Shown here piece by piece: positions 1 through 17,399 of a stretch of DNA of 32,000 nucleotides. Every line of letters starts with the position of its first letter. Within the stretch, counting starts at the first letter, position 1. Below the pieces are notes generated by a model. That model was not told the DNA's origin and made no database searches. It was given only the letters and a program-made list of their open reading frames with translations. This DNA comes from Sinorhizobium meliloti (GTDB taxonomy: Bacteria; Pseudomonadota; Alphaproteobacteria; Rhizobiales; Rhizobiaceae): positions 840,001-872,000 of the forward strand of contig NZ_JAGIOS010000001.1 in the NCBI RefSeq assembly GCF_017876815.1, read 5' to 3'. The position numbers and the translations under genes were made by a program.

Positions 1-150
1 CGGGAGGGGGCGGCGTTCCGGCCACTTCACGTCAACTTCGAGATGTGCGGTGCTGAACGGCCCGTCCGTACCGAGCCACTGCGCCTCGTAGCGGACCTCG
101 ATGGTAAGGCCCCGCCACACGATGGTGTGGGTTTCGATGGAGCGCTTCAT
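1..150 (-). CDS. hypothetical protein, N-terminal part only (gene runs off the left edge)
   Basis: ATG at 150-148 on the minus strand gives MKRSIETHTIVWRGLTIEVRYEAQWLGTDGPFSTAHLEVDVKWPERRPLP with no stop before position 1. Its ATG overlaps the stop of the upstream gene (ATGA, 147-150). No family recognised. Confidence 0.5.
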   Translation of the reverse strand, partial: MKRSIETHTIVWRGLTIEVRYEAQWLGTDGPFSTAHLEVDVKWPERRPLP

Positions 151-410
151 GAGAGCCCCCGAACGCTGGCTGTGACGCTGATAGCACGCTCCAGCCATGG
201 CCGTCCGGCAGTGTCGGATTCGCGTGCGCCCTCAACATGCGGGAGCAGACCTTCCAACGCGGAAAGCAGGGCCGGCGCACTATCGTAGAGGTGGCCGTGG
301 CACCGGACCCGCTCGCGCAGTTCACGATACTCTTCGGCGCCTCCGCGATCTTCGATGAACTGCCAGAGCGCAGCCACGAGGCTGATATCGGGTTCTATGA
401 CATTGTTCAT
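147..410 (-). CDS. hypothetical protein (87 aa)
   Basis: This is an internal start of the 147..722 track ORF: ATG at 410-408 (MNNVIEPDISLVAALWQFIEDRGG...), preceded by GGAAAGGA. The upstream part of the long ORF is Arg/Pro-rich and overlaps the better 443..676 gene in another frame. Stop is coupled to the next gene. Confidence 0.55.
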   Translation of the reverse strand: MNNVIEPDISLVAALWQFIEDRGGAEEYRELRERVRCHGHLYDSAPALLSALEGLLPHVEGARESDTAGRPWLERAISVTASVRGLS

Positions 411-442
411 GTTCGTTTCCTTTCCGAAAGTGGGAGGGGCGC

Positions 443-676
443 TTACGCGCCCGCTCCTTCGTTGTCGGCGGCTTTCGGGACCCGGAGGGTGATCCGGCCG
501 CCATTGACCGGGACCAGATCGAGCTGGAGGGTCAGGCCTTCGCCGTCCTCGTGACGCCAGGCGGCGCCGATGCGGGTCCAGAAGGATTTCTTGCCCTTCT
601 CGTCCACATGCCAGGCGATGTAGGCCGGGGCCTGATGCTCGCGGGACTTGCGGGTCTGCTTTTCGTTCTGTGTCAT
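443..676 (-). CDS. small basic hypothetical protein (77 aa), typical of integrative/conjugative element backbones; family not assigned
   Basis: ATG at 676-674 (MTQNEKQTRKSREHQAPAYIAWHVDEKGKKSFWTRIGAAWRHEDGEGLTLQLDLVPVNGGRITLR...) has AGGAG 7 nt upstream (revcomp of gctcctt at 682-688). Amino-acid composition is clean. I considered DUF736 but the sequence does not match what I remember of that family. Confidence 0.7.
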   Translation of the reverse strand: MTQNEKQTRKSREHQAPAYIAWHVDEKGKKSFWTRIGAAWRHEDGEGLTLQLDLVPVNGGRITLRVPKAADNEGAGA

Positions 677-993
677 GATTAAGCTCCTTTCGCTTGTGGT
701 TTTCCTCGACACGCCTCACCACGGAGCGGGCGGAAAAGCAGACGGTTCATGGCTGTCGCGCAGGAGGGGTATCACCCGCTTGGCAGGGAGCAATGCGACC
801 GAAAGAAGGGGAAACCCGCGCGGCACCCGAAGGGCCTGGCCTTGAAGCGGCTGCGCGCCCGATCAGGTTAGGGCGTTCCAGTCGAGGGAAATTCCTCAAG
901 CCGAACGGATGCTCTTATGACGATAGAAAAGCCGGGACACAGCCGCAACCCATGAGCACTCTCCCCGGCCACGCTTGAAAATGTGCAAAGAGA

Positions 994-1028
994 AAGGGCG
1001 CGCCCGGATGGATCGGAACGCGCCCCTT
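994..1028 (-). terminator. Candidate rho-independent terminator of the 3866->1048 operon
   Basis: GC-rich inverted repeat aagggcgcgc(994-1003)/gcgcccctt(1020-1028) gives a 9 bp stem with one bulge. It lies 20 nt past the stop at 1048 and is followed on the minus strand by tctctttgcacattttc. Confidence 0.4.
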
Positions 1029-1047
1029 AAAGTCAGGTATGACGGCG

Positions 1048-1239
1048 TTAGGCCGCGATCAGGTTGCCGGTCGCGACCAGAGCCGCCTCGTCGGTCAGGC
1101 CTGTCACGCCGGTCAGCGTGGCGATCTGCGTGAAGCCGTAAGTCGAGCCTGTGCCGTCGCGGTCGACGGAGACGGTCGTGTCAGAGCCAGACAGAGCCAG
1201 CTTGACCCGTTGCAACTGCCGATGCAGACGCAACCCCAT
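1048..1239 (-). CDS. small hypothetical peptide (63 aa), last ORF of the secreted-protein operon; C-terminus resembles type I secretion target regions
   Basis: ATG at 1239-1237 is preceded by AAAGGGG (revcomp of 1243-1249). The track ORF extends to 1266. Product is MGLRLHRQLQRVKLALSGSDTTVSVDRDGTGSTYGFTQIATLTGVTGLTDEAALVATGNLIAA. It sits between the DUF1566 gene stop (1289) and the terminator-like hairpin. Confidence 0.4.
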   Translation of the reverse strand: MGLRLHRQLQRVKLALSGSDTTVSVDRDGTGSTYGFTQIATLTGVTGLTDEAALVATGNLIAA

Positions 1240-1288
1240 ACCGCCCCTTTCAAGAACGCCCATCAAACATTCCAGGGATGGTCCTGGG

Positions 1289-2572
1289 CTAGTCGAAATT
1301 TCCCTTGCGTACGCAGCGGACTCTTAGATTGGTGGTCTTGGCGGAAGTGCTTTGCGTGCCCGTATTGAAACTCTGCTGTTGTGCATTAGCCGAGCTGGAT
1401 TCGGTCGAGGACCAGTATGTTCCCGTGGTGAACCCGCCGATGGCAGCCCGGTTGGTATACAGGCGGTTCAATTCGTCCCGCGACGGCAGATACCAGTCGC
1501 CATGGCCGTTGTTGGTCAGGTTCTCGCATAGCTGCATCGCCGGGTACTGGCTGAGTGTAGCATTATGCGCGATCCACGCCTGATCGGCCGCGCCATTCAT
1601 ATTGGAATCGGCGGCCGTATCTGCGCTGACGCTGCTCCACTGGATGGATGTGCTCTGGTCCGCCGCGGGCACATACAGCTTCGTTCCGGGAAGATTCGGA
1701 TGGTCGCCCGCATAGACCGTGCTGTCCGAGCATACGTTTCCGACACTGGCGCAGCCGGTCGGCGCGGTCTCGCTACTCGTGGCGGCGGGTTTGCGAATGC
1801 AGCGCAACAAAGTGGAGCCTGGACCATAGGACTTGATATTGGCGTCAAGTCCGTCGGGATCCTTGAAATACATCGTTAAAGCCCACGTAGAATCTACCTC
1901 CGCCGAAATCCAGTAATAGGCATACGGGTAGCCGGTGCGGTCTATATCCCCGATGAGCGTATGCGCATCGCGGATAAGCTGCATTTCATAGACCGAGGGC
2001 ATGTACCAGTCGCTGTAGCCGTGGACCGTGAGATCGCGGCAAAGCTTCGGCGCGTTGTGATTCTGAAAGCCCACGGCAGTGTCGGCGTCCGTATTGACGA
2101 TGGCGGCGGTATTGAAATGGCCGTCATAGCCGTTGGTCGTATACCCTATGTTTGTTGTCACGGTGTCGGAGCAATTGTCCCAGCATTCCCTGCTCGGGTC
2201 ACCGACGCATTTCAACCCATCCCAGGTGCGCCCGTGGTCGCAGCGCGTGGCGTAGAGCGGCTGGCCGTCGAGCGGAGAGTCGCCGATATAGACCGTGTCG
2301 TCAGCCGAGCAGACATTGCCGATCTGCGTGCAGTTGCCCGACGCCGAATCCGGGCAAGTCCATGCCGTCCCGTGGCAAAATTCTGCTCCGCAGGACGAAG
2401 CGCTGTTGTAGCGAATGGAGCCCTCCAGCGCGCCGTTGCATGTGCGGTTGTCGTAGCCGATCCTGATCGAGCCGCCCGTGAATCCGCCCGATGTTTCCTG
2501 CGCTTCCACCTGAGGCGGAAGAATAAATAACACGAACAAAACCGCCAGCGCGGCGGCACATCTTTTTGACAT
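1289..2572 (-). CDS. secreted protein with two DUF1566 (Lcl C-terminal-like) domains and an N-terminal Cys-bracketed module
   Basis: Start ATG at 2572-2570 (MSKRCAAALAVLFVLFILPPQVEAQE, signal peptide), with GGGGGA upstream and a 1-nt overlap (TAATG) with the upstream stop. There are two DUF1566-like units: ...LCRDLTVHGYSDWYMPSVYEMQLI...YYWISAE...LRCIRK and ...LCENLTNNGHGDWYLPSRDELNRLY...TYWSSTE...VRCVRK. Confidence 0.85.
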   Translation of the reverse strand: MSKRCAAALAVLFVLFILPPQVEAQETSGGFTGGSIRIGYDNRTCNGALEGSIRYNSASSCGAEFCHGTAWTCPDSASGNCTQIGNVCSADDTVYIGDSPLDGQPLYATRCDHGRTWDGLKCVGDPSRECWDNCSDTVTTNIGYTTNGYDGHFNTAAIVNTDADTAVGFQNHNAPKLCRDLTVHGYSDWYMPSVYEMQLIRDAHTLIGDIDRTGYPYAYYWISAEVDSTWALTMYFKDPDGLDANIKSYGPGSTLLRCIRKPAATSSETAPTGCASVGNVCSDSTVYAGDHPNLPGTKLYVPAADQSTSIQWSSVSADTAADSNMNGAADQAWIAHNATLSQYPAMQLCENLTNNGHGDWYLPSRDELNRLYTNRAAIGGFTTGTYWSSTESSSANAQQQSFNTGTQSTSAKTTNLRVRCVRKGNFD

Positions 2573-3564
2573 TAATTCCCCCAAGGCACCCAGTTGGATG
2601 TTCCGTCACAGACTTCGATTGAAGGATTGGCGGATGCGGAAGGCGTAATGACCACCTTGCCAGTGCTGCCCGTTCCCCCGGCACCGCCCGTTCCCGGCCC
2701 CCCGTTGGCTGCCGCCCCACCGCTTGTTGACCCGGTGCCGCCGTTGCTGCCGAGGATAACGGTATCACCATATCCGCCACCACCGCCGCCGCCGCCGCCG
2801 TCACCGCTCAGGCCGTTCCGGCCGTTCGTACTCGTTCCGCCGCCACCCGAACCGTCGGAGCCGCCGCCGCCGCCGCCGTAGGTACTATCGCCGCCATTGC
2901 CCGCACCATTATCCTTACCGGCACCGCCGCCGCCGCCGTAGGTACTGTTGCCACCGCCGCCCGAGCCGTCATCGGCGCTGCCGCCGCCGCCGCCATAGAC
3001 GCTGTTGCCTCCTGTGACACCGCCAGCAGTGCCCCCCGAAACGCCACCGCCTGCTCCACCGTTGACAAGCGCATTTGTCGCGCCGCCGCCGCCGACCCAG
3101 ACATCAAGTTGTTCGCCACCGGCAACGGTCACTGTCGCGCTGCCGTAGCCGCCGCCGCCGCCGCCGCTATTCCCATCCGCGCCGCCGCCGCCACCGCCGC
3201 CGCCTGCGACAAGCAGTGTTCCCACCGCCCGCTCAACTACACTGCCGCCGCCGCCGCCCGCGCCGCCCTCACGGCCACTGCTGCCGCCACCGCCGCCTGC
3301 GCCATAGGCCTCTATCGTGGCGGAGTCACACCCGGCAGGAACATTGTAAGTAAATGTGCCCCCCGTGGTGTATTCTGTGGGGGTGGTATTGCATGCTCCA
3401 CCGCCGCCATTGTAGCGGAGCGACCCTTCAAGGCTCGCGTCGCAGGACCGGTTATCATAGCCGATCTGGATAGAGCTTTCCGTGAAGCTAGCGGAAGTCT
3501 CCTGCGCGCGCGCAGGGGGCGCGATCAATAACGTCAGCGCGATGAGAAGGGCAGCACGCTTCAC
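2572..3564 (-). CDS. secreted glycine-rich protein (Gly_rich/PF12810-like pattern)
   Basis: GTG start at 3564-3562 overlaps the upstream stop (GTGA). Signal peptide is MKRAALLIALTLLIAPPARAQE. The motif GTFTYNVPAGCDSATIEAYGAGGGGG...GGGGGYGSATVTVAGGEQLDVWVGGGG is followed by long Gly/Ser/Asp/Asn repeats (xSxYGGGGG). The four other-frame ORFs here are low-complexity shadows. Confidence 0.8.
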   Translation of the reverse strand: MKRAALLIALTLLIAPPARAQETSASFTESSIQIGYDNRSCDASLEGSLRYNGGGGACNTTPTEYTTGGTFTYNVPAGCDSATIEAYGAGGGGGSSGREGGAGGGGGSVVERAVGTLLVAGGGGGGGGADGNSGGGGGGYGSATVTVAGGEQLDVWVGGGGATNALVNGGAGGGVSGGTAGGVTGGNSVYGGGGGSADDGSGGGGNSTYGGGGGAGKDNGAGNGGDSTYGGGGGGSDGSGGGGTSTNGRNGLSGDGGGGGGGGGYGDTVILGSNGGTGSTSGGAAANGGPGTGGAGGTGSTGKVVITPSASANPSIEVCDGTSNWVPWGN

Positions 3565-3866
3565 TCGGCTTTCGCTTTCTGCGCGATGTGTGCGTCAAAA
3601 CCGGGCGAGTCGTAGTCGGTAATCGAGCCGCCGTAAGATAGGCCCTTGCGAACATGCAGCCCGGTAGAGTCGAGACGGGCGACTTCCAGCCCGTCGATCA
3701 TGAAGCGGAAGGCTTTAACCTCTGCGTCTTCGACAATAATAACGGAATCGTTTTGTACCGCTGCTACGGTATTGATGTGCTCGTCGGCCGATAGGGCAGT
3801 GTACGGGCACAGCATCACCCAAGCCGAAATGCTTGTAATTGCTAATGCTGTAAGCGTGTACTTCAT
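3561..3866 (-). CDS. small secreted hypothetical protein (101 aa), first gene of the operon
   Basis: ATG at 3866-3864 with GAGGATGGGGA immediately upstream. Signal-peptide-like N-terminus is MKYTLTALAITSISAWVMLCPYTALSA. The stretch FRFMIDGLEVARLDSTGLHV loosely recalls the ...ERMRIDSSGNVGIG... repeat of phage tail-fibre proteins; this is a weak resemblance from memory. Confidence 0.7.
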   Translation of the reverse strand: MKYTLTALAITSISAWVMLCPYTALSADEHINTVAAVQNDSVIIVEDAEVKAFRFMIDGLEVARLDSTGLHVRKGLSYGGSITDYDSPGFDAHIAQKAKAE

Positions 3867-3946
3867 TCCCCATCCTCATAAAGGCTTTTTGGGCAAAATC
3901 GGCGAGTTTAATTGACCGTATTTGATACCTAATAATGCATAGGAAT

Positions 3947-3955
3947 ATTATATCA
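3947..3955 (-). promoter_or_regulatory. Candidate extended -10 element (TGATATAAT) for the 3866->1048 operon
   Basis: The minus strand reads tgatataat inside a conspicuously AT-rich 175-bp intergenic region, about 80 nt upstream of the ATG at 3866. No convincing -35 was seen. Confidence 0.3.
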
Positions 3956-4042
3956 TGCAGTCAGTAATGAAGCTAAATCTTCCTATTTTGTTATGTAAAT
4001 TCAGTGTGTTAAGGTATATAGAATGGCGAGAGGTCAGGGACT

Positions 4043-4258
4043 TTGGTTTTGAAAAGATCGCCAGAGGAAATCTCGGTCGAAATCGGGGGCTTGACCTACC
4101 ACGGCGCCTTTTGGACCGACAAAGATCTTGTCACGCTCCGCACGGCTTACGGCATAAAAACGAGAACACAGGGCGCTACGCCGGCCGATACAATTGCCCG
4201 GGAACTTCTCCGTGAACTGGTTCTGGAGCGGAAGGCGGACAGAACCATCTGGCTTTAG
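4043..4258 (+). CDS. small hypothetical protein (71 aa)
   Basis: TTG start with a weak RBS. Product ...ISVEIGGLTYHGAFWTDKDLVTLRTAYGIKTRTQGATPADTIARELLRELV... has protein-like composition and resembles small orphan proteins I recall only vaguely. It lies 114 bp upstream of the T4CP-like gene. Confidence 0.4.
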   Translation: MVLKRSPEEISVEIGGLTYHGAFWTDKDLVTLRTAYGIKTRTQGATPADTIARELLRELVLERKADRTIWL

Positions 4259-4372
4259 GCAGATAGTGAGCAACAGGTTCCAGAGCAGGCCGCGACCGCG
4301 CGGCAGGCCGGCACTGTGTGGCAGCGACACGAGGAATTGGCGAGGAGGGACAGCGGAAACCCGCTCTAAAAA

Positions 4373-5932
4373 ATGGCGTCGAACACGAACACGCGAGCAA
4401 CGGTAATGAACGCCTTTGTCAGTGAATTCACCCGCGACATCCCCCGCGGAATCACCACAAGATTCCTCAATCAGCAAAAGCAGCCGCAAGCCTGCTGGAT
4501 GCCGCTCGAAAGCATCCTGCGAAGCGCGGCCATGACCTACGATCCGCATAACCCCGGCGGCGCGCTGCTGGTCGGATGCTTGGGGGACAGATTGCTGGGC
4601 ATCAAAGACAATCGTCACGCCCTAATGGTCGCCGGTTCGCGCACTGGCAAATCCGTCAGTCTTGTGAACAATCTGCTGTTCTATAGAGGCAGCGTGCTGG
4701 CCCTTGATCCCAAGGGCGAGCTGGCCTCTCTTACAGCGGCCAGGCGCGCCGAACTGGGCCAGAAGATTTGTATTCTCGATCCCTTCGGAATCGTACCCGA
4801 GCGGCTCGCGCCCTATCGCGCCAGCTTCAACCCTCTCACCCTCCTCGATCAGGTGAACGACACGATCATAGAGGACGCGGGGCTGATTTCAGACGCTCTG
4901 GTCGTCGCGGGCGGCAAGGACCCGCATTGGGATGAAAGCGCCCAGAACTTGATCGAGGGGCTTCTCTTGCATGTTGCCACCGACCCGCAGTTTGAGAGGC
5001 GGCGCAATCTGATCACCGTGCGCCGTCTGATCAACAACGCTCTAGTGCCGGCGGGTGGTGACGACGATGCATTCGCACTCGAACTCGCCATGCTGAAGAA
5101 CGCGGCACGGCTGTCGCGCAACCAGAACACGGCAGACATTGGCGACGCCATCGAGGGGGCGGCCCGCGATTTCTACGAGCGTCCCGCGAACGAACGCGGG
5201 AGCGTTCTGTCGACCACACGTCGCCACACCAAGTTACTCGACTATCGCGCGATGCACCGCGTGCTGGCTGGTCACGACTTCAACCTGGCTGACCTCAAGA
5301 CCGCACCCAAGGGGATGACGATCTATCTGTGCCTCCCGGCCAACCGCATGAAGAAATGCAATCGCTGGCTGCGCCTGTTTATCAACCTGTTGCTCGATGC
5401 CATGGAACGCGAGAAGACCGAACCGGCCTGCCCGGTGCTGGTCTGCCTCGACGAGTTCCCGGTGCTCGGCCATATGCAGCAGCTTGAAGATGCGGCCGGG
5501 CAGATCGCGTCGTTTGGCGTCAAGCTATGGGTCGTGATCCAGGACTGGGGACAAGGCGTGTCGTTGTACAAGGACCGTTGGGAGACGTTCACTGGCAATG
5601 CGGGCATTCTCCAGTTCTTCGGGAACAACGACCTGATGACGACGGAGTACGTCTCGAAGCGCCTGGGCAAAACCATCGTCACGGTGACGCGGCAGAACGA
5701 AACCGCGCCCGAGCAGCGCGCATCCGGTGTTGATGGCCGGTCGGAATCGCAGGAGCAATATGACCTGCTCACCCCTGATGAGGTCAGCCGGCAATTCGCC
5801 CGCGATGACCGGCTGAAGCGCCAGCTCGTTATCTGGACGGGACATCACCCGATGGTCTTGCAGCGTATCGAGTATTTCGACAAGGCAAGCCCAGTCCACG
5901 GCATATTCGCCGGGAAGTACGGGGCTCCCTAG
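4373..5932 (+). CDS. VirD4/TraG-family type IV coupling protein homologue lacking the N-terminal transmembrane region
   Basis: Walker A is [12 protein letters not shown] (about aa 86-97) and Walker B is [13 protein letters not shown], followed by [11 protein letters not shown], as in T4SS-DNA_transf/TraG-D_C proteins. There is no hydrophobic segment in the 85 residues before Walker A. The stop TAG (5930-5932) lies inside the 64-bp repeat. Confidence 0.9.
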
Positions 5933-5987
5933 CCTTCCGCCTCACGCCGGGAAGATCCCTTCGACGAAGTCGGGGTTCTTTCCGGCG
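5924..5987. repeat. Direct repeat copy A (64-bp core, 61/64 identical to 10822-10885)
   Basis: gctccctagccttccgcctcacgccgggaagatcccttcgacgaagtcggggttctttccggcg aligns with copy B by eye. Weaker similarity extends over about 5867-6030. Confidence 0.85.
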
Positions 5988-6030
5988 GCTCGCCATGCTG
6001 GCGGTCGACCGCGCAAGCCTGGTGATCGGA
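5929..6030 (-). pseudogene. 3' remnant of an ankyrin-gene paralogue (no start codon)
   Basis: The minus-strand frame reads [33 protein letters not shown], bounded upstream by a TGA at 6033-6031. It parallels the C-terminus of the intact ankyrin protein (...[26 protein letters not shown]). Confidence 0.5.
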
Positions 6031-6413
6031 TCAAAACCGATCGTAGGGATTCGCAGAATCTCGCTGTCCTTCATCGCGCCGGAGACTTAACGCCGGTCTG
6101 GGTGCCGGACGAAATACATGGGTCAGCACTTTGCTTACAATTTTGCTTGAAATAGGTCATGGAGGGATCGACACCCGCATGGGTCGATAAGTCCTTCGAA
6201 GCCTTGGCCAAGCAGGGGGGCTCGGGGGTCGCGCTTGCTTGCAAAGATATGCTGGAGTCATTCGCGTATCTTGGCTCCGGCATCGCGCGCGCCGGCGTTC
6301 TCAGGCTCAGAAAAGCGCCGGAATTGCCAATCCTATGAGCGTGAACAGGCCACAAGAGAGACTTGCATAGCGATCGCCCGCGCCTCATCCCGGCGCCGAA
6401 TTAACCGACGGCC

Positions 6414-6749
6414 TCACTCGAAAATCGCGGCCACCTTCGCCAGCACTTCGTTGATGATTGCCACCGGCACCTTCTCCAGCTTCCGGCCATGCCCCGAACC
6501 GATATCGAGGGCGCGCGGCTGATCGCAGCGCACTACCCCCGTCGTCTGCGTTCCCGCGCCAACCAGCGAGACTGCAAACCCCGCGGTGCGGGCAAAATTG
6601 CCGCCCGTGATGATCGGCAGCACGATCGGCATCCGCGTCAGACGGTTAAACGGCCCCGGTGACACGACCAGCACCGGGCGCGTGCCTTGCTGCTTATGCC
6701 TGGAGGTGGGACCAAGCGAGATGAGGTAAATATCGCCACGCTCCATCAC
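6414..6749 (-). CDS. mazF: type II toxin, PemK/MazF-family mRNA interferase
   Basis: MMERGDIYLISLGPTSRHKQQGTRPVLVVSPGPFNRLTRMPIVLPIITGGNFARTAGFAVSL...GVVRCDQPRALD matches the MazF/ChpB pattern. The start overlaps the antitoxin stop (ATGA). Confidence 0.9.
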   Translation of the reverse strand: MMERGDIYLISLGPTSRHKQQGTRPVLVVSPGPFNRLTRMPIVLPIITGGNFARTAGFAVSLVGAGTQTTGVVRCDQPRALDIGSGHGRKLEKVPVAIINEVLAKVAAIFE

Positions 6750-7006
6750 AATAGCTCCTGGCCAGTGGTGGGCCTACCGGCCAGCCAGTCCCTATCCACC
6801 GCCGGACTCTCCGCTGAGGCATCGCATTGCGCCAACAGCTGCTCCAGCGTGTAACGCGGCCGCATCCGCGGTTCGATCACCAAACGGCCGTTGTCGACCA
6901 CCAGATCCACGGCCGACCCCGCAACAAGATGCAGCTGCTCAAGCAGTGGCCGCGGCACGGCCAGCATCACCGAGCCCCCCACCTTGCGCAAATTTGTCGT
7001 GTGCAT
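6746..7006 (-). CDS. mazE: type II antitoxin, AbrB/MazE/SpoVT-family
   Basis: MHTTNLRKVGGSVMLAVPRPLLEQLHLVAGSAVDLVVDNGRLVIEP is a SpoVT/AbrB swapped-hairpin motif. The gene lies immediately upstream of, and overlaps, the toxin gene. Confidence 0.85.
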   Translation of the reverse strand: MHTTNLRKVGGSVMLAVPRPLLEQLHLVAGSAVDLVVDNGRLVIEPRMRPRYTLEQLLAQCDASAESPAVDRDWLAGRPTTGQELL

Positions 7007-7018
7007 AAAACCCCCTAC

Positions 7019-7036
7019 GTTATATTTAAATATAAC
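7019..7036. promoter_or_regulatory. Perfect 18-bp palindrome, candidate mazEF operator
   Basis: gttatatttaaatataac lies 13 nt upstream of the mazE ATG (7006). Confidence 0.5.
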
Positions 7037-7413
7037 ACATCGGCTCCCGCTTATTCAACATCGCCGTCCTCCGCACCGACGGCGCGTCTGATATGTCTCG
7101 GGAGCGGGAGCGGCCGCCGAGGCGGGCCGCTCGCTTAGACGAAGAGCGGTGTGAAAGAGATAAAAAAAGAGAGCCAGTTAGGGGCAGGCACTTGTCATGA
7201 CGCCATTGGTGCCGCTTTGCGCCACCGCGACAAACAGACCATTGCCGTAGGGGTATTATATGCAGGCGCGGTCGGCTAAAGGCTGTCGTCTTGGCGTGGA
7301 GAATACGGAGGCATAAAACGCCCACCCGGCGGCTGAATCGTGAGATATTCAGGCATGGCATTCCGCTTCGACCTGATCATTTTCGAGAAATTCACTAGCC
7401 CCAAGGGTGCGGC

Positions 7414-10400
7414 TTACTCGCACCCCGTGCCGCTGTTGTAGATCGCATCAATCTCGGCGGCGGTCAGGACGCGGTTGTAAACGCGCACGTCATCGATCCT
7501 TCCATCAAACCAGCGCAGAATAGGATCGCGCACGCCCATATACATGTTGTGAGTGGCATCGGAATCGAAGGCGGCAGTCGGTTCCCAGAGTTCCGTATAA
7601 GCTACGGGCTGACCATTTATATACATGGCCGGAACATTGTTAAAATCGTCCTGATTGAATGTTACAGCCACATGGGTCCAAGTGTTCAGCGTAATAGCAG
7701 TATTCGTTGCCCACATACCAGCGGCGTCAACAACAGTGCTGGTATGATCTATGTAAAACATAAGGCTTCCGCCGCTGTCGACAAACTTCCATGTCCATCC
7801 GTCATTACTCTCGGCGCCTTTGTCCAGAATTCGGCCCTGATTGAAGTTGCCGTAACTCTCCGGATAAATCCACGCCGAGATCGTGCCCCCGCCTACAAAC
7901 AAATCATCCAGAGAGGCGCTGGAACCAAGATTGATATAATCGGACGAGCCGTTAAAGTTCAGCGCCGTGCCGACCTGTCCCGCGACCGTATCGGATGCCG
8001 CATCCATCCCGCCCTGCAGCGTGCCGGTATTGCCATTCCCGGAGGAGTCCGCCGCGCTCGTGCCGGTGGTTTCATTGAGCTTCCAATGAGCGACCAGGTC
8101 TGAAGAAGCGATGCAGGCGCAGGCGTCAGGGTTGCTCATGCCCTGCCACACGCCGCCGTCGCAATATTGCATCGTGCAGCTGTTGCTGTTGAACATCACG
8201 AAGCCTTCGGTGCGTGACGGGCTGGCGCAGCCGCCGGTGGGGCTGCCGGGGTTTACGGGGCCGGCGGCGTGCCAGTTGCTGCCGTCGCACCATTGCAGGA
8301 CGCGGCGGTCGGCGTTGTAGCGGATGGTGCCGGCGAGGCCGCTGGGGTTATTGCAGTAGCTGCGCGCGGAATATATATGGACGGCACCGACGAAGTTGGG
8401 ACCTATTTCCGTGTCACGGGGATCGCCTACAGCCAGTAAGCCGCCATCCAGCGCTATGCCTGTTGCATAGCTGTCGGTCGTGGCGGGCATAGATGACTCG
8501 ACGCTGTGCAGCAAGGCGCCGCTGGCGGTGTTGTAAATGAATGCGCGTCCGTTGCTGCTTGTCAGTTGATCGCCGAAAGCGCCGATAGCGGCAAACGGGC
8601 CCGAGATAGCGGATGAGTAGCCAAATTCGCTGCCAGTCCCGCTGCCGGGCTTGGTAAGGGTGGCTATGTTTGTTCCCGTGGCGGGGTTGAACGTATAGGC
8701 GACGCCGGCATGGGGGGTGCCGGCGGTGACAAGGGCGATATTATTCGCAATGCCCACTGTCTGCCCGAATTCATCGTTGGTAGAAGGCAAAGGGTTGTTC
8801 CATGTCGAGATCAGCGCACCGGTGGAAGCGTTGTATACATAGGCGCTGCCGGCATCGACGGTGCCGCCGGGATCGTCGCTGACGGCGCCGATGACGAGAT
8901 TGTTCCCTTCGAGCGCGAGGGAAGAACCGAACAGGTCGCCATTGCCCGGCGCCGGGTTGTCGATGGTTTGCGTCAGGGCGCCGGTGGTTGCGTTGAAAAC
9001 GTAAACTGTGCCCGCGTTGGTGGCGCCGGTATCGTTGTAAGGCGCGCCCACGGCGACAAGGTTCCCGTAGAGGGCGATCCCGCTGCCAAAAATATCATCG
9101 ACGGTGGGGGCGGGGTTGGCGAGTGTGGTGAGAAGGGCGCCGTTGGCGGCGTTGAAAATCCAGGCGCGCCCGGCCTGGTTGGCGCCGGTATCGTTGTCGG
9201 GCGCCCCGATCGCGATCCTGCCGCCCTGCATATCCATGGCCCAGCCGAAATTGGAGGTGGCGAAAGGTTGGGGTTCGGCAATGGCGTAAAGGGCGGCGCC
9301 GGTTGCTGAATCGCGGACCCAGACGTAACCGTTGTTGCTCTCGTTGAAATCCTCGCCGGCGGCGCGTATGGCGAGATAGGGCCCTTCCATAGCGAGGGTT
9401 TCGCCAAACAAGTCCCAGTCTGTCCCGGGTGACGGATTGTTCAGCTTGGTGAGTGTGGATTGGGTTGCCCAGTCATAGGACTGGCCGGTGTTGCAGCTGC
9501 CCACGGCGATGCGGTTGGTGGCGGTGAGGCCGGCGAGGATGACAATTGTTCCGTTGCCGGCGGCGGCACCGTACCAAGTGCCGGTTTCGATGCTGTGCAA
9601 TGTCCAGTTAAGACCGTCGGGAGAGGTCATGACGTTATTGCTGGATACCGTTTCATCGGCCAGAGCTACAAATTGACCGTCGGTATAATCGACATTGATC
9701 CAGGGGGATGCGCTGGACTGCGTTACCCAGGCTAGGCCATCGGTTGATGTTGAGATATTGTTGGGGCCGTTACTGGCGACAGCCACGAAGCGGTCGTTAC
9801 CGTAGGTGACGGATTGCCATTGCTTGGCGCCGATGGTGCCCACGGTCCAGTTGGCGCCGTCGGTGGAGGTCATGGATTGATTCGTGCCGGACGTGGTGAC
9901 GGCGACGAAGCGCCCGTTGCCATAGGCGACGTCGAACCATTGGTTGGCCTGCGCCGCCGCGTGGACAGTCCATGTGATGCCGTCGGCGGAGCGCGCCACG
10001 CGGTTGGTGCCGCTGCGCGCGACAGCCACGTAATAGCCACCGCCATAGGTCAGGCCCGCCCAGTTGTTGGCCTCCGGAATCGCCGTGGCATGCTGGGTCC
10101 AGTTCACGCCGTCGGGCGAAGTCATGACGACGGAGGAGTTGCTGGTGATGACAACGAACTGGTTGTTTGCAAAAATGATATCCATCCATTGCAAACTTGC
10201 GGGGGGGCTGGCGTTCGTCCAGCTGACGCCGTCGGTGGAATAACGGATGCGGTTGGAACCATTCTGCGCGACGAGGACGAATTTACCGGCGCCGTAAGCG
10301 ACGGCGGTGAATGTGTTCGCCGTGCCGATGGATACCGGGGTCCATGTGCCGGTGGTGCCGGTGCAGGTGGGAGCGGCGGCTTTGCGCAGGCCGATCCAGT

Positions 10401-10560
10401 TTGTGCCGTTGCAATATTCGACGGCGGCGTCGGTCAGGTCGTAGGTGAGGGTGCCGGCCTCGGCGGCGGGCGAAACGCAACTCGCCTGCGCTGCTCCCGC
10501 TGACGTAAGGGCGACGGCAAAAATCATTATCGAAATATAAAATCCAATGACCCGCATCAT
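7414..10560 (-). CDS. large secreted protein: Cys module, 7x Asp-box/BNR-like propeller, 7x FG-GAP-like propeller, 2x Cys module, LamG/ConA-like lectin domain
   Basis: Signal peptide is MMRVIGFYISIMIFAVALTSAGAAQA. There are seven ~40-aa repeats W..V.YG.G.FVAV...G.N....S.DG..WT (aa ~84-356). There are seven ~53-aa repeats NP.P...D.FG...A..G....IGAP..D.G...AG..Y.FN..TGAL (aa ~373-734). The C-terminus is LVAHWKLNETTGTSAADSSGNGNTGTL...ALNFNG...WTHVAVTF...DGRIDDVRVYNRVLTAAEI (Laminin_G_3 pattern). Confidence 0.9.
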   Translation of the reverse strand: MMRVIGFYISIMIFAVALTSAGAAQASCVSPAAEAGTLTYDLTDAAVEYCNGTNWIGLRKAAAPTCTGTTGTWTPVSIGTANTFTAVAYGAGKFVLVAQNGSNRIRYSTDGVSWTNASPPASLQWMDIIFANNQFVVITSNSSVVMTSPDGVNWTQHATAIPEANNWAGLTYGGGYYVAVARSGTNRVARSADGITWTVHAAAQANQWFDVAYGNGRFVAVTTSGTNQSMTSTDGANWTVGTIGAKQWQSVTYGNDRFVAVASNGPNNISTSTDGLAWVTQSSASPWINVDYTDGQFVALADETVSSNNVMTSPDGLNWTLHSIETGTWYGAAAGNGTIVILAGLTATNRIAVGSCNTGQSYDWATQSTLTKLNNPSPGTDWDLFGETLAMEGPYLAIRAAGEDFNESNNGYVWVRDSATGAALYAIAEPQPFATSNFGWAMDMQGGRIAIGAPDNDTGANQAGRAWIFNAANGALLTTLANPAPTVDDIFGSGIALYGNLVAVGAPYNDTGATNAGTVYVFNATTGALTQTIDNPAPGNGDLFGSSLALEGNNLVIGAVSDDPGGTVDAGSAYVYNASTGALISTWNNPLPSTNDEFGQTVGIANNIALVTAGTPHAGVAYTFNPATGTNIATLTKPGSGTGSEFGYSSAISGPFAAIGAFGDQLTSSNGRAFIYNTASGALLHSVESSMPATTDSYATGIALDGGLLAVGDPRDTEIGPNFVGAVHIYSARSYCNNPSGLAGTIRYNADRRVLQWCDGSNWHAAGPVNPGSPTGGCASPSRTEGFVMFNSNSCTMQYCDGGVWQGMSNPDACACIASSDLVAHWKLNETTGTSAADSSGNGNTGTLQGGMDAASDTVAGQVGTALNFNGSSDYINLGSSASLDDLFVGGGTISAWIYPESYGNFNQGRILDKGAESNDGWTWKFVDSGGSLMFYIDHTSTVVDAAGMWATNTAITLNTWTHVAVTFNQDDFNNVPAMYINGQPVAYTELWEPTAAFDSDATHNMYMGVRDPILRWFDGRIDDVRVYNRVLTAAEIDAIYNSGTGCE

Positions 10561-10734
10561 TCTGATTTTATACTACAATAATTAATCTATTATTTGAGCA
10601 AGGATGATGTCATTCAAACAAATTAATTCTCGCTGAACATGCATGGCCCTAAAGCAGAAGAATAAAGAGAAAATATCAATTATATCAATGGACTAAATTG
10701 CCCCTTCGAGACACTGATCTTATTCTTCCCTTAA

Positions 10735-10830
10735 TATCTGCCTTTTCGAGCCTCTTCGCGCGAAGTGTGTATGACCTATTTCGAGCCGTTTGACTGCCAA
10801 TGGTTCGGCCAGCAGTTCGCGGCTCCCTAG
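10735..10830 (+). pseudogene. 3' remnant of a T4CP-like gene paralogue
   Basis: The plus-strand frame after a TAA (10732-10734) reads YLPFRASSREVCMTYFEPFDCQWFGQQFAAP*. Its tail parallels the T4CP-like C-terminus (...[22 protein letters not shown]) and ends at the equivalent CTAG. Confidence 0.4.
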
Positions 10831-10885
10831 CCTTCCGCCTCGCGCCGGGAAGATCCCCTTGACGAAGTCGGGGTTCTTTCCGGCG
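10822..10885. repeat. Direct repeat copy B (64-bp core)
   Basis: gctccctagccttccgcctcgcgccgggaagatccccttgacgaagtcggggttctttccggcg is 61/64 identical to 5924-5987. Flanking similarity extends over about 10771-10945. Confidence 0.85.
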
Positions 10886-11222
10886 CCCCCCCGTACTGAC
10901 GGTCGAACAAATAGCGCCCCGTGACTGGATTATCGCCAAGCACGACCGCCAGCGTGGCGGCGGTCCGGCCGCGATGATCTCTGGCTGAAACATCGCATCT
11001 GCCGCTCGCGATCAACAGGCGCAGAACGGCGCCCGCGTTCCGTGCGGCGGCGATGTGGAGTGCCGTCATGCCCTGGCCGGACTCGGCGTAATTGACGTCG
11101 ATGTCCGGGTTTTTGAGAAAGCCGCGCACTCTGTCAGTGTCGCCAAGGCCCACGGCTTCCAGGAACTGGCGGTGTAGCCCGCTTCTTCGACGGTCCTCGG
11201 GAGAACCCGTTTCAGGCACCAT
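10827..11222 (-). CDS. ankyrin-repeat protein (131 aa)
   Basis: ...DIDVNYAESGQGMTALHIAAARNAGAVLRLLIASGRCDVSARDHRGRTAATLAV... shows two ANK-type repeats. Its ATG at 11222 overlaps the upstream ORF by 11 nt. Confidence 0.8.
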   Translation of the reverse strand: MVPETGSPEDRRRSGLHRQFLEAVGLGDTDRVRGFLKNPDIDVNYAESGQGMTALHIAAARNAGAVLRLLIASGRCDVSARDHRGRTAATLAVVLGDNPVTGRYLFDRQYGGAPERTPTSSRGSSRREAEG

Positions 11223-12066
11223 CGCCGTCCTGCTCCTTCGTGTAGTGCCAGATATTGTCCTTGATACGCGCCATGCGTCCTTCTTCAGGATCGTGGTCAG
11301 ATGTGAGCACTTTCATTTTCTCATGAGAGTAGCCCATAGGCGCAAAGCCGAAATCCCGCGACTTGACGAGTGTCATGTCGGCGGGGGCGCGATCCGGCAC
11401 GTCTGTCTGGTAACTCAGGACGATGTCGAGTGTTGTTTCTCTCGACACGTCTTCGCGTGCAAACAGGCAATGTTGCCCTCGTGAGCGGACCATCCATCCG
11501 GTGTAGCGGCGCTCGCTTCCGCCGTGGCGGCTCAGTATGCGCGCCAGGGCGTCCCGCTTTGTCGATTGCGGCGTGACGGGCAGGCTGTAGAGCTTTTCGG
11601 TCACGGCGAAAGTTCCGGCCTGCTCGTCCCCTATTGTCAGGAACGACAATTCCGTCCGGGGTCCGATCTTGCGGCTGCCGACAAAGGTCGCGGAGAGCGG
11701 CGGCCCGTTCTCTCCCGCTTCGCCGCCAAGACCGAAGTAATCCTGCAAGGCCCTAACCAGAATCGGCTCGGGAACAGTCGCCTCCATATCGGTTGCGGAC
11801 AGAAATTTCTTATCAATCAGATACCGGCATAGGGCATCGAGACGCTCCGGCGTGGGAGTCTGCGTCGCTGCCGCAAAACGCCTCAACGCTTCTGCCAGAG
11901 CCTTCCGCGGGTCGGCCTCGCGCGTCTCGTCATCTTCCAGAAAGCCGTCGTGCAGCGCATCGGCAACAGCATACCAGGACCGCTTGCGTCCGTTGACGCG
12001 CGTCGCCGAGCGGTACTCCAGAAGGGCCGCCCTGACTGTCCTCAATGCCGCGTCCGAAAACTCCAT
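11212..12066 (-). CDS. hypothetical protein (284 aa), coupled to the ankyrin gene
   Basis: Long ORF with balanced composition and an ATG start (MEFSDAALRTVRAALLEYRS...). The opposite-strand ORFs across it are short and Arg/Ser-rich. No domain recognised. Confidence 0.7.
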   Translation of the reverse strand: MEFSDAALRTVRAALLEYRSATRVNGRKRSWYAVADALHDGFLEDDETREADPRKALAEALRRFAAATQTPTPERLDALCRYLIDKKFLSATDMEATVPEPILVRALQDYFGLGGEAGENGPPLSATFVGSRKIGPRTELSFLTIGDEQAGTFAVTEKLYSLPVTPQSTKRDALARILSRHGGSERRYTGWMVRSRGQHCLFAREDVSRETTLDIVLSYQTDVPDRAPADMTLVKSRDFGFAPMGYSHEKMKVLTSDHDPEEGRMARIKDNIWHYTKEQDGDGA

Positions 12067-12173
12067 AATCTTCGTGCCTTGCGAGGAAAGCGCGAGGAAA
12101 CATCACGCTTTTCGATGCCAAATTCTCACGCGGAAAGGCTGTCAACAAGGCTTTTCTGGAAAGGCAGTCTACG

Positions 12174-12851
12174 ATGAGCACCATTCATCGAGCATTCGAG
12201 GGCGAACCCCGGACAGAGCTGGTGGAAATCGATGGCCAGGCGGTCATCACCGTCACAGCCGAGCATCAGTCACCCACGAAGTTGCAGGAAGCGGATGAGA
12301 AAGCCAGGGACTGGTCATGGGGCCTTATGGCTGGCAGTCTCTTTTACATCTTCAATGAACCCCAGCTTTCAGCAGGCCTGGGCGTCCTCTTCGGCGCAGC
12401 GCTGCTTGGCCGGATACCATTGCAGATGTTCTTCCGTGAAACTTCGCGGCAGGCCACGACAGTCCGCTTCACCGAGAGCAATTTCGAGATGATGAACGGC
12501 GAGGTATGGACGGCCTATGACCGCAACCATCCGCACCGGTTCATCCTCCTGGAGCATGACCAGACACGCGCCGAAAACGACGAGCTCGAATATCAGCGCC
12601 AGCGCGCTTCCCTGAATGGTCAGGCGAGAAGGATGCGCCGCTACTTCAGCGACTCCTGCATCGTCGCCTTCGAATATCTGGGCCAGCGCCTGGATATCGC
12701 CGAAGTGCAGGGCCGCAAGCGTGCTGCCGCCTTCGTAGCCCGCCTGACGCTTTGTGATGAGTACATGAACGGCCTTGCGAGCAGTCGCCGCCGCATACCG
12801 CTGACCCCCGCCGATGAATGGCGGGAACAGACCGGCGGGTTACCGCAATAA
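12174..12851 (+). CDS. hypothetical membrane protein (225 aa)
   Basis: ATG start, divergent from 11212..12066. Hydrophobic hairpin WSWGLMAGSLFYIFNEPQLSAGLGVLFGAALLGRIPLQMFF is followed by a charged soluble domain. No family recognised. Confidence 0.65.
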   Translation: MSTIHRAFEGEPRTELVEIDGQAVITVTAEHQSPTKLQEADEKARDWSWGLMAGSLFYIFNEPQLSAGLGVLFGAALLGRIPLQMFFRETSRQATTVRFTESNFEMMNGEVWTAYDRNHPHRFILLEHDQTRAENDELEYQRQRASLNGQARRMRRYFSDSCIVAFEYLGQRLDIAEVQGRKRAAAFVARLTLCDEYMNGLASSRRRIPLTPADEWREQTGGLPQ

Positions 12852-12873
12852 CAACCAATGAAAGGATACTGCC

Positions 12874-13104
12874 ATGTACAAAAACGACAACTGGGGCATC
12901 GAAATGTCGATCGCCGCCTCGAACCCGGACTATATATCGTCGCATCCCGCGGGCAGGGCAGTCAGCAGCGTAATGCACACGCACGGTTGGTATGGGTCAA
13001 ACCAGTCCGACGGGCCCCCCATTCCACCCAGGCCGGAGCACTCCGGCGCCGCGATGATTGTCTTCATCATCAATCTGTGCGTCCTGCTATTCCTCTTGAG
13101 CTGA
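12874..13104 (+). CDS. small tail-anchored hypothetical protein (76 aa)
   Basis: ATG is preceded by AAAGGA (8-nt spacing) and lies 22 nt after the previous stop. The C-terminal hydrophobic helix is AAMIVFIINLCVLLFLLS. Confidence 0.45.
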   Translation: MYKNDNWGIEMSIAASNPDYISSHPAGRAVSSVMHTHGWYGSNQSDGPPIPPRPEHSGAAMIVFIINLCVLLFLLS

Positions 13105-13145
13105 CCGTCATGGGCGCGATAGGCAAAGCAATGGGAAGCCGCCGC

Positions 13146-14060
13146 TCACGCGGCGGCCTCCTCGGATTGGCTGAAACCCGACAGATAGTCGGCAGCCCGC
13201 TGCGCGTGCGCGGCGGCGGCAAAGATCGCCCGCTTGTCGTCTTTCAGGACGGACAGCCAGTGGCCAATATAGGCGGCGTGGTCGTCCCGGTCTTCAAGGC
13301 GAAGCCCCAGGTCGGCACAGAGGAACGCAGCGCCCAGCTCGGCGACCAGTTCTTCACGGGCATAGCCGTCATCGCCGAACCGCTTGCGGCCGAGATCACG
13401 GTCAAGACGCGTGGCATGGCGGGTCCAGTGCGTGGCCTCATGGGCGAGGGTGGCGTAGTACGCCTGCGCGTCGCGGAAGGCCTCAAAACCGGGCATCTGG
13501 ATGTAGTCGAGAGCCGGGCTGTAGTAGGCGCAGTCGCCGCCATGGCGGATATCGGCGCGGGTCGCTCCGAAGAAGGTCTCGGCGTGGGCGATGCGCTCGT
13601 CGGGGTTCTGGATGTTGTCGGCCTGCGCGTGGAAGTGAGCCGGCAAGCCTTCGATCTGTTCGACATTGAAGACCGTGTAGGCCTTCAGGAACGGGATGAA
13701 ACGCTCGGCCTCGTCGCCGGTGGCCTCATCGGTCTCGGTGCGCCGCATCGTATCGGCATACACGACGGGAGAGCCCTTCTCGCCCTTGCGGACGTTGCCG
13801 CCCAGCTCGATGGCCTGCTTGAAGGTCATCCAGATCGGCGCGGCGTAGTGTCCCGTCATCGCCGATGCCCAGAGCGTCAGGACATTGATGCCGGCATAGG
13901 GCTGGCCGTTATGGCGCAGGGGCCGGGAGACATGGCCTGCGGCATGCGCAGCGTTCCAGGGCTGCGTCCAGGGTTTCACGCCTTGCTCAAGCGCTTCGAT
14001 GATCTGGTTGGTGATGCGGCTGTAGACATCCTGCCGCGGGGTTTCGTTGGTGGCCGACAT
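13146..14060 (-). CDS. ardC: ArdC-type antirestriction protein (N-terminal ssDNA-binding DUF1738 domain plus C-terminal HExxH metalloprotease)
   Basis: Start ATG at 14060 (MSATNETPRQDVYSRITNQIIEALEQGVKPWTQPW...) with AGGAG upstream. The motif LAHEATHWT is present. Length and layout are typical of ArdC. Confidence 0.9.
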   Translation of the reverse strand: MSATNETPRQDVYSRITNQIIEALEQGVKPWTQPWNAAHAAGHVSRPLRHNGQPYAGINVLTLWASAMTGHYAAPIWMTFKQAIELGGNVRKGEKGSPVVYADTMRRTETDEATGDEAERFIPFLKAYTVFNVEQIEGLPAHFHAQADNIQNPDERIAHAETFFGATRADIRHGGDCAYYSPALDYIQMPGFEAFRDAQAYYATLAHEATHWTRHATRLDRDLGRKRFGDDGYAREELVAELGAAFLCADLGLRLEDRDDHAAYIGHWLSVLKDDKRAIFAAAAHAQRAADYLSGFSQSEEAAA

Positions 14061-17317: not shown

Positions 17318-17399
17318 CGCGAGGAATCGGCGTGGAAACGGACTTAAACTGCCTGCTAAATAGCCCCCTCAAGGAAATTCGTTGGATGAGGAGTGAGGA

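Follow-up and report, generated by a model that had tools for sequence, protein, structure and literature searches.

A 38-residue Cys-bracketed module in predicted exported proteins of Sinorhizobium meliloti and its probable kinship with phage tail-fibre modules

In a 32,000-nucleotide stretch of the Sinorhizobium meliloti genome (contig NZ_JAGIOS010000001.1, positions 840,001 to 872,000; hereafter the window), a small Cys-bracketed module recurs in three predicted exported proteins, A (a DUF1566 protein), B (a Gly-rich protein) and C (a protein of 1048 amino acids, aa), all encoded on the minus strand, as is D, a 101-aa protein. We found that the module is a domain with a fixed length of 38 residues, C-x2-P-x4-G-x3-[YF]-N-x6-Q-[YW]-C-[DN]-G-x2-W, with its Cys pair 22 residues apart, and that it belongs to a large family whose genes cluster and fuse in other genomes. 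In B, the module is split into two halves that bracket a whole inserted domain. We consider it probable, with real room for doubt, that the module is a small, rigid beta unit of the phage-fibre type, stapled by a disulfide, which caps and connects binding domains in exported proteins and probably oligomerises.

A fixed-length domain family

The first-pass annotation of this DNA had listed five copies of the module in A, B and C; we re-read them from the translations and found all five in place, all on the minus strand. Three are in C. Copy C1 (10381..10491; aa 24-60, motif aa 28-55) stands directly after the predicted cleavage site between AQA and SC and scores 44.5 bits against the family profile. 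C2 (8251..8367; aa 732-770, motif aa 736-763; 60.9 bits) is the first of a tandem pair between the FG-GAP region and the LamG domain, and C3 (8131..8241; aa 774-810, motif aa 778-805; 48.5 bits) is a three-Cys variant that is kept at the equivalent position in homologues. The copy in A (2345..2452; aa 45-80, motif aa 49-75, CNGALEGSIRYNSASSCGAEFCHGTAW) is of a divergent LEG subtype with two extra Cys and reaches 10.9 bits against the general profile; its N-terminal extension is a QETS leader (2441..2500; aa 29-48).

The copy in B consists of half 1 (3406..3444; aa 41-53, CDASLEGSLRYNG, of which aa 41-52 are CDASLEGSLRYN), a Gly-rich insert (2641..3393; about aa 58-308) that contributes Cys58 and Cys79, and half 2 (2575..2631; aa 312-330, ANPSIEVCDGTSNWVPWGN), which has CDGTSNW at aa 319-325 and ends in WVPWGN at the stop codon. 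Half 1 corresponds to strand beta1 of the module and half 2 to strands beta2 and beta3. A six-frame scan with [FYW]C[DNH]G[TSG]x(1,2)W returned only the four full copies; half 2 of B escapes it through a Val before the Cys. C1, C2 and C3 fit the 38-residue Cys-bracketed definition, the A copy is a divergent subtype that lacks the Pro, and B fits it only when its halves are spliced.

A hidden Markov model (HMM) built from the four full window copies detected 2-3 copies in each of 13 homologues of C, with independent E-values (i-E) of 1e-9 to 1e-16. The copies occupy conserved positions, one immediately behind the signal peptide and two in tandem beyond the repeat region. An alignment of 33 copies is virtually free of gaps over 38 columns. 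Among 416 copies, 389 are exactly 38 aa long and 381 have exactly two Cys; C4, P7, C26 and W31 are conserved at 100%, and G12, N17, Q24, Y25 and G28 at 81-92%. In an exhaustive profile search of 1.84 billion representative proteins (clusters at 50% identity), 3360 matched at E<=1e-3; 1194 remained at E<=1e-10, and 282 at E<=1e-30. The similarity is due neither to chance nor to compositional bias, and the proposed module is a genuine recurrent domain.

The first-pass annotation could assign the module to no named family, and at threshold this stands. The modules of A, B and C matched no Pfam-A or NCBIfam model at E<=1, module-only proteins and 100 isolated copies had no Pfam-A or NCBIfam match at threshold, and comparison of the profile with PDB sequences gave chance matches only, such as ULK1. 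The module is nevertheless no orphan, as it has Cys-less phage-fibre relatives (described below) and is linked, below threshold, to Mtd_N (PF18454), which forms the N-terminus of the major tropism determinant (Mtd) of a Bordetella phage. Mtd_N was the only recurrent weak Pfam match (10 of 100 isolated modules, all sub-threshold, best E 1.5e-3) and reached E<=1e-5 in 3 of 69 multi-copy family proteins, through summed copies; for A, B and C it was absent at E<=1, which leaves them outside that family (gathering cutoff 26.3 bits). Mtd_N would therefore be the nearest named family only below threshold. A large domain family that carries no Pfam or NCBIfam name unites thousands of proteins now called 'hypothetical', 'LamG-like', 'DUF1566' or, wrongly, 'PE-PGRS'.

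A scan of GTDB genomes with QYCDGT[NST]W gave 40 loci, mostly from Alphaproteobacteria (many Micavibrio, plus Rhodospirillaceae, Afifella, Roseovarius and Pseudolabrys); the other carriers are Bdellovibrio, Bacteriovoracaceae, Oligoflexia and a few Acidobacteriota and other phyla. At least two module open reading frames (ORFs) are present in about 16 of the 40 loci. On the Micavibrio aeruginosavorus chromosome (L061, 6812-11181), three tandem paralogues each have a signal peptide, a module, a fibre-like linker, a second module and a Gly-rich domain. Module genes therefore cluster and, as shown below, fuse in other genomes, and the idea that they form a functional set holds. Around the 40 loci, we found no conserved neighbour for secretion, Dsb or an anchoring partner; only antisense shadow ORFs and UvrA were common. 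Among plasmids, tblastn of B gave zero matches, and those of C lay nearly throughout in its payload domains, the exception being a Rhizobium lusitanum LamG protein in which the match begins at the module pair.

Export is predicted both in the window and in the family. A, B, C and D each begin with a classical Sec-type signal peptide, as judged by inspection. In 124 of 168 family proteins, the first module Cys is no more than 90 residues from the start, and among these 124 a hydrophobic h-region precedes it in 112 and an AxA-like site stands just before the Cys in 115. At the other end, 54 of the 168 proteins stop within 6 residues of the module end, and 44 have a module at both ends.

When 69 family members picked at random were analysed with Pfam, 44 had Laminin_G_3, 20 had Lcl_C, 5 had FG-GAP_2, 4 had RCC1 propellers and 3 had LVIVD propellers, with pentraxin, C-type lectin and sialidase-N as rarer payloads. 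The module is thus fused to many payloads across the family, as had been seen in the window. These payloads had been called unrelated, which is right for their folds; they are not random, however, all being lectin-like or adhesion-type. The payload set of the family is that of the window, with folds that differ and a kind of binding domain that is alike.

Three further kinds of family member are recorded here. P0135, P0157 and P0229 are giant proteins (2878-3902 aa) with 6-10 module-like copies, for example YNNTTKTMEFCDGTDWGALA and LRYNGGNIQYCNGSTWGSLV, evenly spaced (about 470 aa in P0157). The first ORFs of loci L003, L005, L006 and L013 encode large module proteins beside other module genes, and these end in a hydrophobic helix and a basic tail, for example LFGFIGGGLFMWILVQRPSRKS, which resembles a C-terminal sorting or anchor signal. 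P0122, one of the Micavibrio paralogues, is annotated as a 'PE-PGRS virulence associated protein', which looks like a misnomer due to its glycine richness.

Fold and phage tail-fibre relatives

AlphaFold, run on C2 with the 33-copy alignment, gave a confident three-stranded antiparallel beta sheet (predicted local distance difference test, pLDDT, 89.7; strands 14-17, 22-26 and 31-34). A single disulfide, C4-C26, would close this sheet; we infer it from the 100% conservation of both Cys in 416 copies, the export signals and the absence of the Cys from most phage relatives. Foldseek against the PDB, which is uninformative for a query this short, gave no significant match (best E 3.2, Mtd outside the top 50); its best matches, the N-terminus of phage CBA120 TSP4, fibronectin type I (FnI) modules and the HylP fibre, all had E>3.

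Against predicted viral structures, the top 50 Foldseek matches were essentially all phage or giant-virus structural proteins, comprising Gly-rich-domain, LamG, tail-fibre, tail-collar, S74 and Mtd_N-domain proteins, with cyanophage and pelagiphage among the sources. The best of them had a probability of 0.9-1.0, a template-modelling score (TM) of 0.64-0.74, a root-mean-square deviation (rmsd) of 1-2 A over about 30 residues and 30-42% identity, with a lowest E of 0.037. A marseillevirus protein annotated with Mtd_N ranked fourth in this library (E 0.18, TM 0.64, rmsd 1.1 A, 28 columns). Alignment of the 100-copy profile with residues 1-60 of BPP-1 Mtd by hhalign placed it on the expected segment, at a non-significant E of 0.17.

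The sequences lead to the same proteins. The consensus was compared by tblastn with 50,697 phage genomes; its matches were weak and fell almost exclusively in tail-fibre or virion genes, and we could read the motif, without its Cys pair, in four phage proteins, for example as GEAGAIVFDKNTLTLKYHDGTNW and GSIRFNTDSLQYEGYDGTNW. E. coli phage A4 has LPIGEAGAIVFDKNTLTLKYHDGTNWIEML, with a near-identical version in Klebsiella phage K64-1; phage S-CAM4 has RPAADIGTLIYNSEEEVVQLWSGTEWIDVGG and phage Sf-FP1 has ERGAAETGSIRFNTDSLQYEGYDGTNWGSLGG. Among the PHROG profiles, which were built independently of the present analysis, the module-only protein P0153 had matches at 8e-7 and 2e-5, and phrog_13229, a 'tail fiber protein', was matched by 6 of 100 isolated modules; the window's own copies have no PHROG match on the module, so the phage link goes via the family profile. 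In viral contigs of IMG/VR, some phage proteins have at their N- or C-terminal end a variant of the module with one or two Cys. As a separate observation, in phage proteins of IMG/VR contigs L047 and L051-L055 the stop codon is directly preceded by a two-Cys variant whose loop is longer, LPAC..EG....D..(about 14 aa)..HVLAYCDGTNWTVMGK.

The phage tail-fibre hairpin module (Klebsiella phage K64-1/RaK2, E. coli phage A4 and cyanophage virion proteins; PHROG 13229, 1325 and 5621) has the same size, a small predicted beta-sheet fold and a common core motif, G-x-[IL]-x-[FY]-[ND]-x6-[LM]-x-[YW]-x-[DN]-G-x2-W. It likewise stands N-terminal to or between receptor-binding domains (C-type-lectin-like, Gly-rich and LamG). 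In contrast, the bacterial module has an invariant Cys pair and Pro, which are mostly missing in the phage copies seen, it occurs in Sec-exported cellular proteins, and it is often found at both protein ends or split. That the Cys are invariant in exported copies and lost in most phage copies, which would fold in the reducing cytoplasm, fits a structural disulfide. Since several modest lines of evidence agree, we infer that the module is an exported, disulfide-bracketed relative of the widespread phage-fibre hairpin module, probably by homology as against analogy.

The payloads point the same way. The Gly-rich domain of B matched the Bxb1 tail tip (E 0.008) and the cyanophage Pam3 fibre (E 0.016) by Foldseek, as well as PHROG 863 and 356, both of the tail category. 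DUF1566 has a C-type-lectin-like fold (PMC11162425), and the receptor-binding head of Mtd has a C-type lectin fold (PMC2408619).

The closest functional analogues are the mosaic adhesive trimer (MAT) fibres of Bdellovibrio (PMC10769870) and Legionella Lcl (PMC11162425). MAT fibres, like the module proteins, are exported and contain phage-fibre parts, in predatory bacteria (PMC10769870); their N-terminal element is constant, whereas the adhesive tips behind it are exchangeable, with TNF-like domains and C-type lectin domains like that of Mtd among them (Caulton et al. 2024, PMC10769870). They have in addition a conserved beta-rich N-terminal domain of about 130 aa, a long beta-helical trimeric shaft and often an S74 chaperone, which A, B and C lack. 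Pfam scans of A, B and C found no Peptidase_S74 or beta-helix family, and the likeness to MAT is drawn at the level of function, from the published description, which does not describe the 38-residue module (PMC10769870).

Lcl shares with A its DUF1566 domains (PF07603; PMC11162425), of which A has two. The exported Lcl trimer displays its glycan-binding DUF1566 heads by means of a stalk and a small N-terminal element (PMC11162425), with an amphipathic helix and a collagen triple helix instead of the Cys module; A scored 59.6 bits against the Lcl equivalog, whose cutoff is 500 bits. FnI modules resemble the module as disulfide-stabilised beta mini-domains of about 40 residues that lie like beads between other domains. 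However, they have two disulfides (C1-C3 and C2-C4) in about 45 residues and 2+3 strands and are eukaryotic, whereas 381 of 416 module copies have just two Cys; their Foldseek matches (TM 0.56-0.67, E>3) are not significant, and there is no sequence similarity.

What is new is the invariant Cys pair and Pro, the cellular exported context, a module at each protein end, the leader subtype with its mini-proteins, and the nesting of up to about 870 residues in a 38-residue domain. The family extends the idea, raised for MAT in Bdellovibrio, that bacteria reuse phage receptor-binding hardware, and would carry it to Micavibrio and to free-living and symbiotic Alphaproteobacteria such as S. meliloti.

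Role of the module and its split form

On the reading we favour, the module is an autonomous domain whose disulfide would form after Sec export into the oxidising periplasm. Placed right after the signal peptide, between domains or at the C-terminal extreme, it would rigidly connect or cap lectin-type binding domains and so hold them on display. It would probably also be an oligomerising stalk element of the fibre type, stacking as its phage relatives do. Oligomerisation is favoured because a sheet of only 38 residues, standing alone, lacks a core and because both Lcl (PMC11162425) and Mtd (PMC2408619) are trimers; the DUF1566 domain of Lcl may promote trimer formation (PMC11162425), and the N-terminal beta-prism of Mtd presumably attaches the trimer to the tail fibre (PMC10743442). 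The scaffold role is likewise put forward as probable.

The module may also be, as the first-pass annotation hypothesised, an anchoring, recognition or assembly handle. In the form of this hypothesis that competes with a scaffold, the module itself would work as a very small domain, lectin-like or envelope-binding, and fasten the protein to a surface polymer or a partner, with additional copies adding avidity. Exported proteins that consist of modules only (P0153, with three modules and nothing else, and the mini-proteins of L058 and L060) speak for it, as do the invariant or near-invariant Y16, N17, Q24, Y25 and W31, which resemble those of small sugar-binding modules, and the first copy at the mature N-terminus in 124 of 168 proteins. 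Moreover, the N-terminal prism of Mtd is thought to be an attachment interface (PMC10743442), and Lcl has a separate N-terminal element as surface anchor (PMC11162425). However, no conserved partner or secretion gene adjoins the module genes in the 40 loci, and the conserved hydrophobic and aromatic residues of a 38-residue sheet would be needed anyway for its core or an oligomer interface. Copies also occur between domains and at C-termini and tolerate inserts of up to about 870 aa, which fits a scaffold better than a binding site. We regard a handle of this kind as unlikely.

A and B carry a divergent subtype of the module, with the motif C-x3-LEG-x2-RY, no Pro and a QETS leader in front. 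The near-identity of the two leaders noted earlier is real: across 32 codons they share 22 residues, and of their 22 codon differences 12 are synonymous. A recent duplication as the origin of these leaders is ruled out by their 68% nucleotide identity and the 12 synonymous codon differences. The leader is kept in A, B, P0121, genes 1 and 2 of locus L046 and L056-L060, and it resembles the end of an internal linker in Micavibrio, SIGIAYDSQAC. The subtype is bridged to the main family by L046_346, which has an LEG-type first half and a canonical second half (i-E 7e-12); L056 and L046_346 are close relatives of the A copy with a canonical second half, and the second modules of Micavibrio form a further bridge.

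The annotation had proposed that the two halves in B bracket an inserted Gly-rich domain, and comparison with P0121, L046_952 and the mini-proteins bears this out. The three module genes of L046 (4095-9530) interrupt a cytochrome oxidase operon, where they separate COX1 from a UbiA-family (CtaB-like) gene. P0121 reads leader, half 1 (CDSTLEGAMRYFDGTG), a complete Lcl_C domain, half 2 (ALQYCNGTSWINTG) and a Gly-rich domain. The adjoining L046_952 (952 aa) has the leader and half 1 at its N-terminus and half 2, LDFCDGTQWQNWGQ, at its C-terminal extreme, directly before the stop, with an insert of about 870 aa (LamG, Gly_rich_2, LamG) between them; L046_346 (346 aa), which also adjoins P0121, has the leader, an intact module and a Gly-rich domain. 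A metagenome scan with the leader gave further cases. L056 is A-like (leader, intact module, Lcl_C), and L059 is B-like, with half 1 followed directly by a Gly-rich domain on a contig that stops before the C-terminus. The open frames of L058 and L060, of 96 and 87 codons, encode mini-proteins with only a signal peptide, a QETS-type leader and an intact module, ending in IEYCDSSTWQIWGG and GWTNWGE, respectively, at the stop. B ends alike, in IEVCDGTSNWVPWGN, so that the ending W-x2-WG[NQGE] before the stop codon is common to B, L046_952 and these unsplit mini-proteins, whose leader is of the same subtype.

Taken singly, the halves of B score about 0 bits each; the spliced halves score 18.1 bits, against a maximum of 9.7 among 1000 shuffles. 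The Gly-rich domain of B aligns with those of the Micavibrio proteins and P0128. Since Cys58 and Cys79 align with the C...C pair of the Gly-rich domain itself, we assign them to the insert, which leaves Cys41 and Cys319 as the module pair of B. B is therefore a leader-type mini-protein that has taken up a Gly-rich domain between its strands 1 and 2. In the QETS-leader subtype, the loop between these strands would take up whole domains; in B, the nested domain would be of the Gly-rich phage-fibre type, and the Cys41-Cys319 pair would close it into a loop.

Alternatively, the halves of B could be decayed remnants of two separate, complete modules flanking the Gly-rich domain, which do not fold together. 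Homologues of B in Micavibrio have a complete module ahead of the Gly-rich domain, P0128 (Gly-rich, module, Lcl_C, module) has one after it, each half of B is featureless to the profile on its own, and the AlphaFold model of B is of only moderate confidence. Its predicted strands 49-52, 315-319 and 325-327 nevertheless correspond to the three strands of the intact module, the spliced score exceeds every shuffle, and the W-x2-WG[NQGE] ending is also that of unsplit mini-proteins. Because exactly complementary halves recur in three independent proteins (B, P0121 and L046_952) with different inserts, with L059 as a fourth case of first half and insert, we hold decay to be improbable.

The halves might also complement each other in trans, the C-terminal half completing the N-terminal half of another subunit as in donor-strand exchange and yielding disulfide-locked head-to-tail polymers or hetero-complexes within an operon. 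The halves do lie at the extreme termini of B and L046_952, split and unsplit genes stand side by side in one operon, and relatives of the module occur in polymeric or trimeric phage fibres. In P0121, however, half 2 is internal and followed by another domain, which fits nesting in cis, and the monomer model of B already has all three strands. The N- and C-termini of C-type-lectin-like and jelly-roll-type domains typically lie side by side, which makes insertion in cis geometrically easy. Complementation in trans is thus very unlikely. The last alternative, a chance or compositional artefact of Cys/Gly/Asn-rich secreted proteins, could appeal to short segments and the low score of the A copy, and is hardly credible in view of the 3360 matching proteins, 282 of them at E<=1e-30, the fixed length and four invariant positions of 416 copies, the conserved sites in homologues and the confident AlphaFold model.

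Several points weigh against a disulfide-stapled, phage-fibre-type scaffold. The module-only proteins P0153, L058 and L060 suggest that the module has a function of its own besides linking; for L058 and L060, this is implied for the unit of leader and module. Every single phage or Mtd_N comparison of the window copies is statistically weak, and the Cys-containing variants in some viral contigs mean that Cys does not mark exported proteins absolutely. The model of B is of moderate confidence (pLDDT 69.6; predicted TM score, pTM, 0.69), with no alignment depth for its C-terminal half; the strand at 49-52 lies in 10-residue blocks with mean pLDDT of 79 and 71, the strands at 315-319 and 325-327 are at about 72, and local values overall are about 70-80. 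Reassembly of the halves into one sheet with Cys41 close to Cys319 is a prediction. Finally, S. meliloti is not known to have a general type II secretion system, which leaves passage across the outer membrane unexplained.

Nested domains in general, like B, P0121 and L046_952, place a whole domain in a loop of a parent that becomes discontinuous. The module differs in that the parent has only 38 residues, the inserts have 190 to 870 residues and the conserved disulfide would close the base of the insert. The split form would hence be an extreme of domain nesting, with up to about 870 residues inserted in a 38-residue parent and presumably a single closing disulfide; it may serve as a natural scaffold for loop display, and the Cys41-Cys319 bond of B is a direct, testable prediction. 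More speculatively, the module could be a self-complementing clasp, which caps or stacks in short trimeric stalks when intact and, when split, closes a payload loop in cis or joins subunits in trans. Alphaproteobacteria and predators (Micavibrio and Bdellovibrio) would then use it for arrays of phage-fibre-derived lectin heads that recognise cells or prey. We consider this improbable as a whole; if true, it would be an assembly principle not described before.

The module genes of the window and their surroundings

D, B and A form one operon on the minus strand. Gene D (3561..3866; 101 aa, signal peptide) is its first gene, and its stop codon overlaps the GTG start of B (GTGA), which indicates translational coupling of D and B. 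Gene B (2572..3564; 330 aa) encodes, in order, a signal peptide, the QETS leader, module half 1, the Gly-rich domain and, at the C-terminal extreme, module half 2; it matches Gly_rich_2 (PF21722) at 26.1 bits against a gathering cutoff of 24.3, over the first 48 profile positions only. Gene A (1289..2584) encodes a signal peptide, the QETS leader, one module and two Lcl_C (DUF1566) domains, which match PF07603 at 76.4 bits in two stretches (gathering cutoff 34.9 bits). The likely start of A is the ATG at 2572-2570, which overlaps the stop codon of B (TAATG). Consensus matches alone mark a promoter-like site upstream of D (3985..4012, minus strand) and a terminator-like hairpin directly after the A stop (1272..1287, minus strand).

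The fusions P0121 and P0128, the three-gene L046 cluster, the tandem paralogues of Micavibrio and the overlaps within D-B-A link A-type and B-type genes and support a functional link between A and B. We nominate D-B-A and C as one set of predicted exported binding proteins in S. meliloti, with attachment, biofilm and phage or predator interactions as candidate settings. D had no family match in Pfam, NCBIfam or PADLOC; its motif EVARLDSTGLHV bears what we take to be a loose resemblance to the '..RID..GNVGIG' strands of fibre proteins. A diversity-generating retroelement acting on the DUF1566 domains of A was also considered and rejected, as there is no template/variable repeat pair in window positions 1-12000 and Pfam scans of the window ORFs gave no reverse transcriptase.

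Gene C (7414..10560, minus strand; 1048 aa) lies apart from D-B-A, and its ORF is 100% identical to S. meliloti EME01_05390. Its product has, in order, a signal peptide, module 1, propeller-like repeats, 7 FG-GAP_2 repeats, the tandem modules 2 and 3, and Laminin_G_3. Both Pfam payloads exceed their gathering cutoffs (FG-GAP_2, 132.1 bits, E 7.8e-39, 7 stretches; Laminin_G_3, 82.8 bits, E 3.8e-23). The database entry for C (P0001, 1037 aa) has 11 residues less than the ORF from the ATG at 10560. The signal peptide requires that ATG, as only the longer form, with the extra residues at window 10528-10560, starts with a normal signal peptide that includes a charged n-region.

The module genes had been described as island cargo, and this is plausible. 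A TraG/VirD4-type coupling protein of 519 aa (4373-5932), a MazF/MazE pair (6414-7006), a tyrosine integrase (15082-16290) and tRNA-Arg(ACG) (19721-19797) look like remnants of an element that was integrative or conjugative; a search of the window for an att repeat of at least 14 nucleotides (nt) from the tRNA-Arg region found none. Five ORFs of 284, 225, 489, 164 and 323 aa (11212-14822 and 17133-18104), which have zero Pfam or PADLOC matches, adjoin a 131-aa ankyrin-repeat protein (10827-11222). On either side of a 4.9-kb segment with MazEF and gene C stands one copy of a 103-nt direct repeat (85% identity; 5906-6008 and 10804-10906), which suggests that this segment is a cassette bounded by a repeated element.

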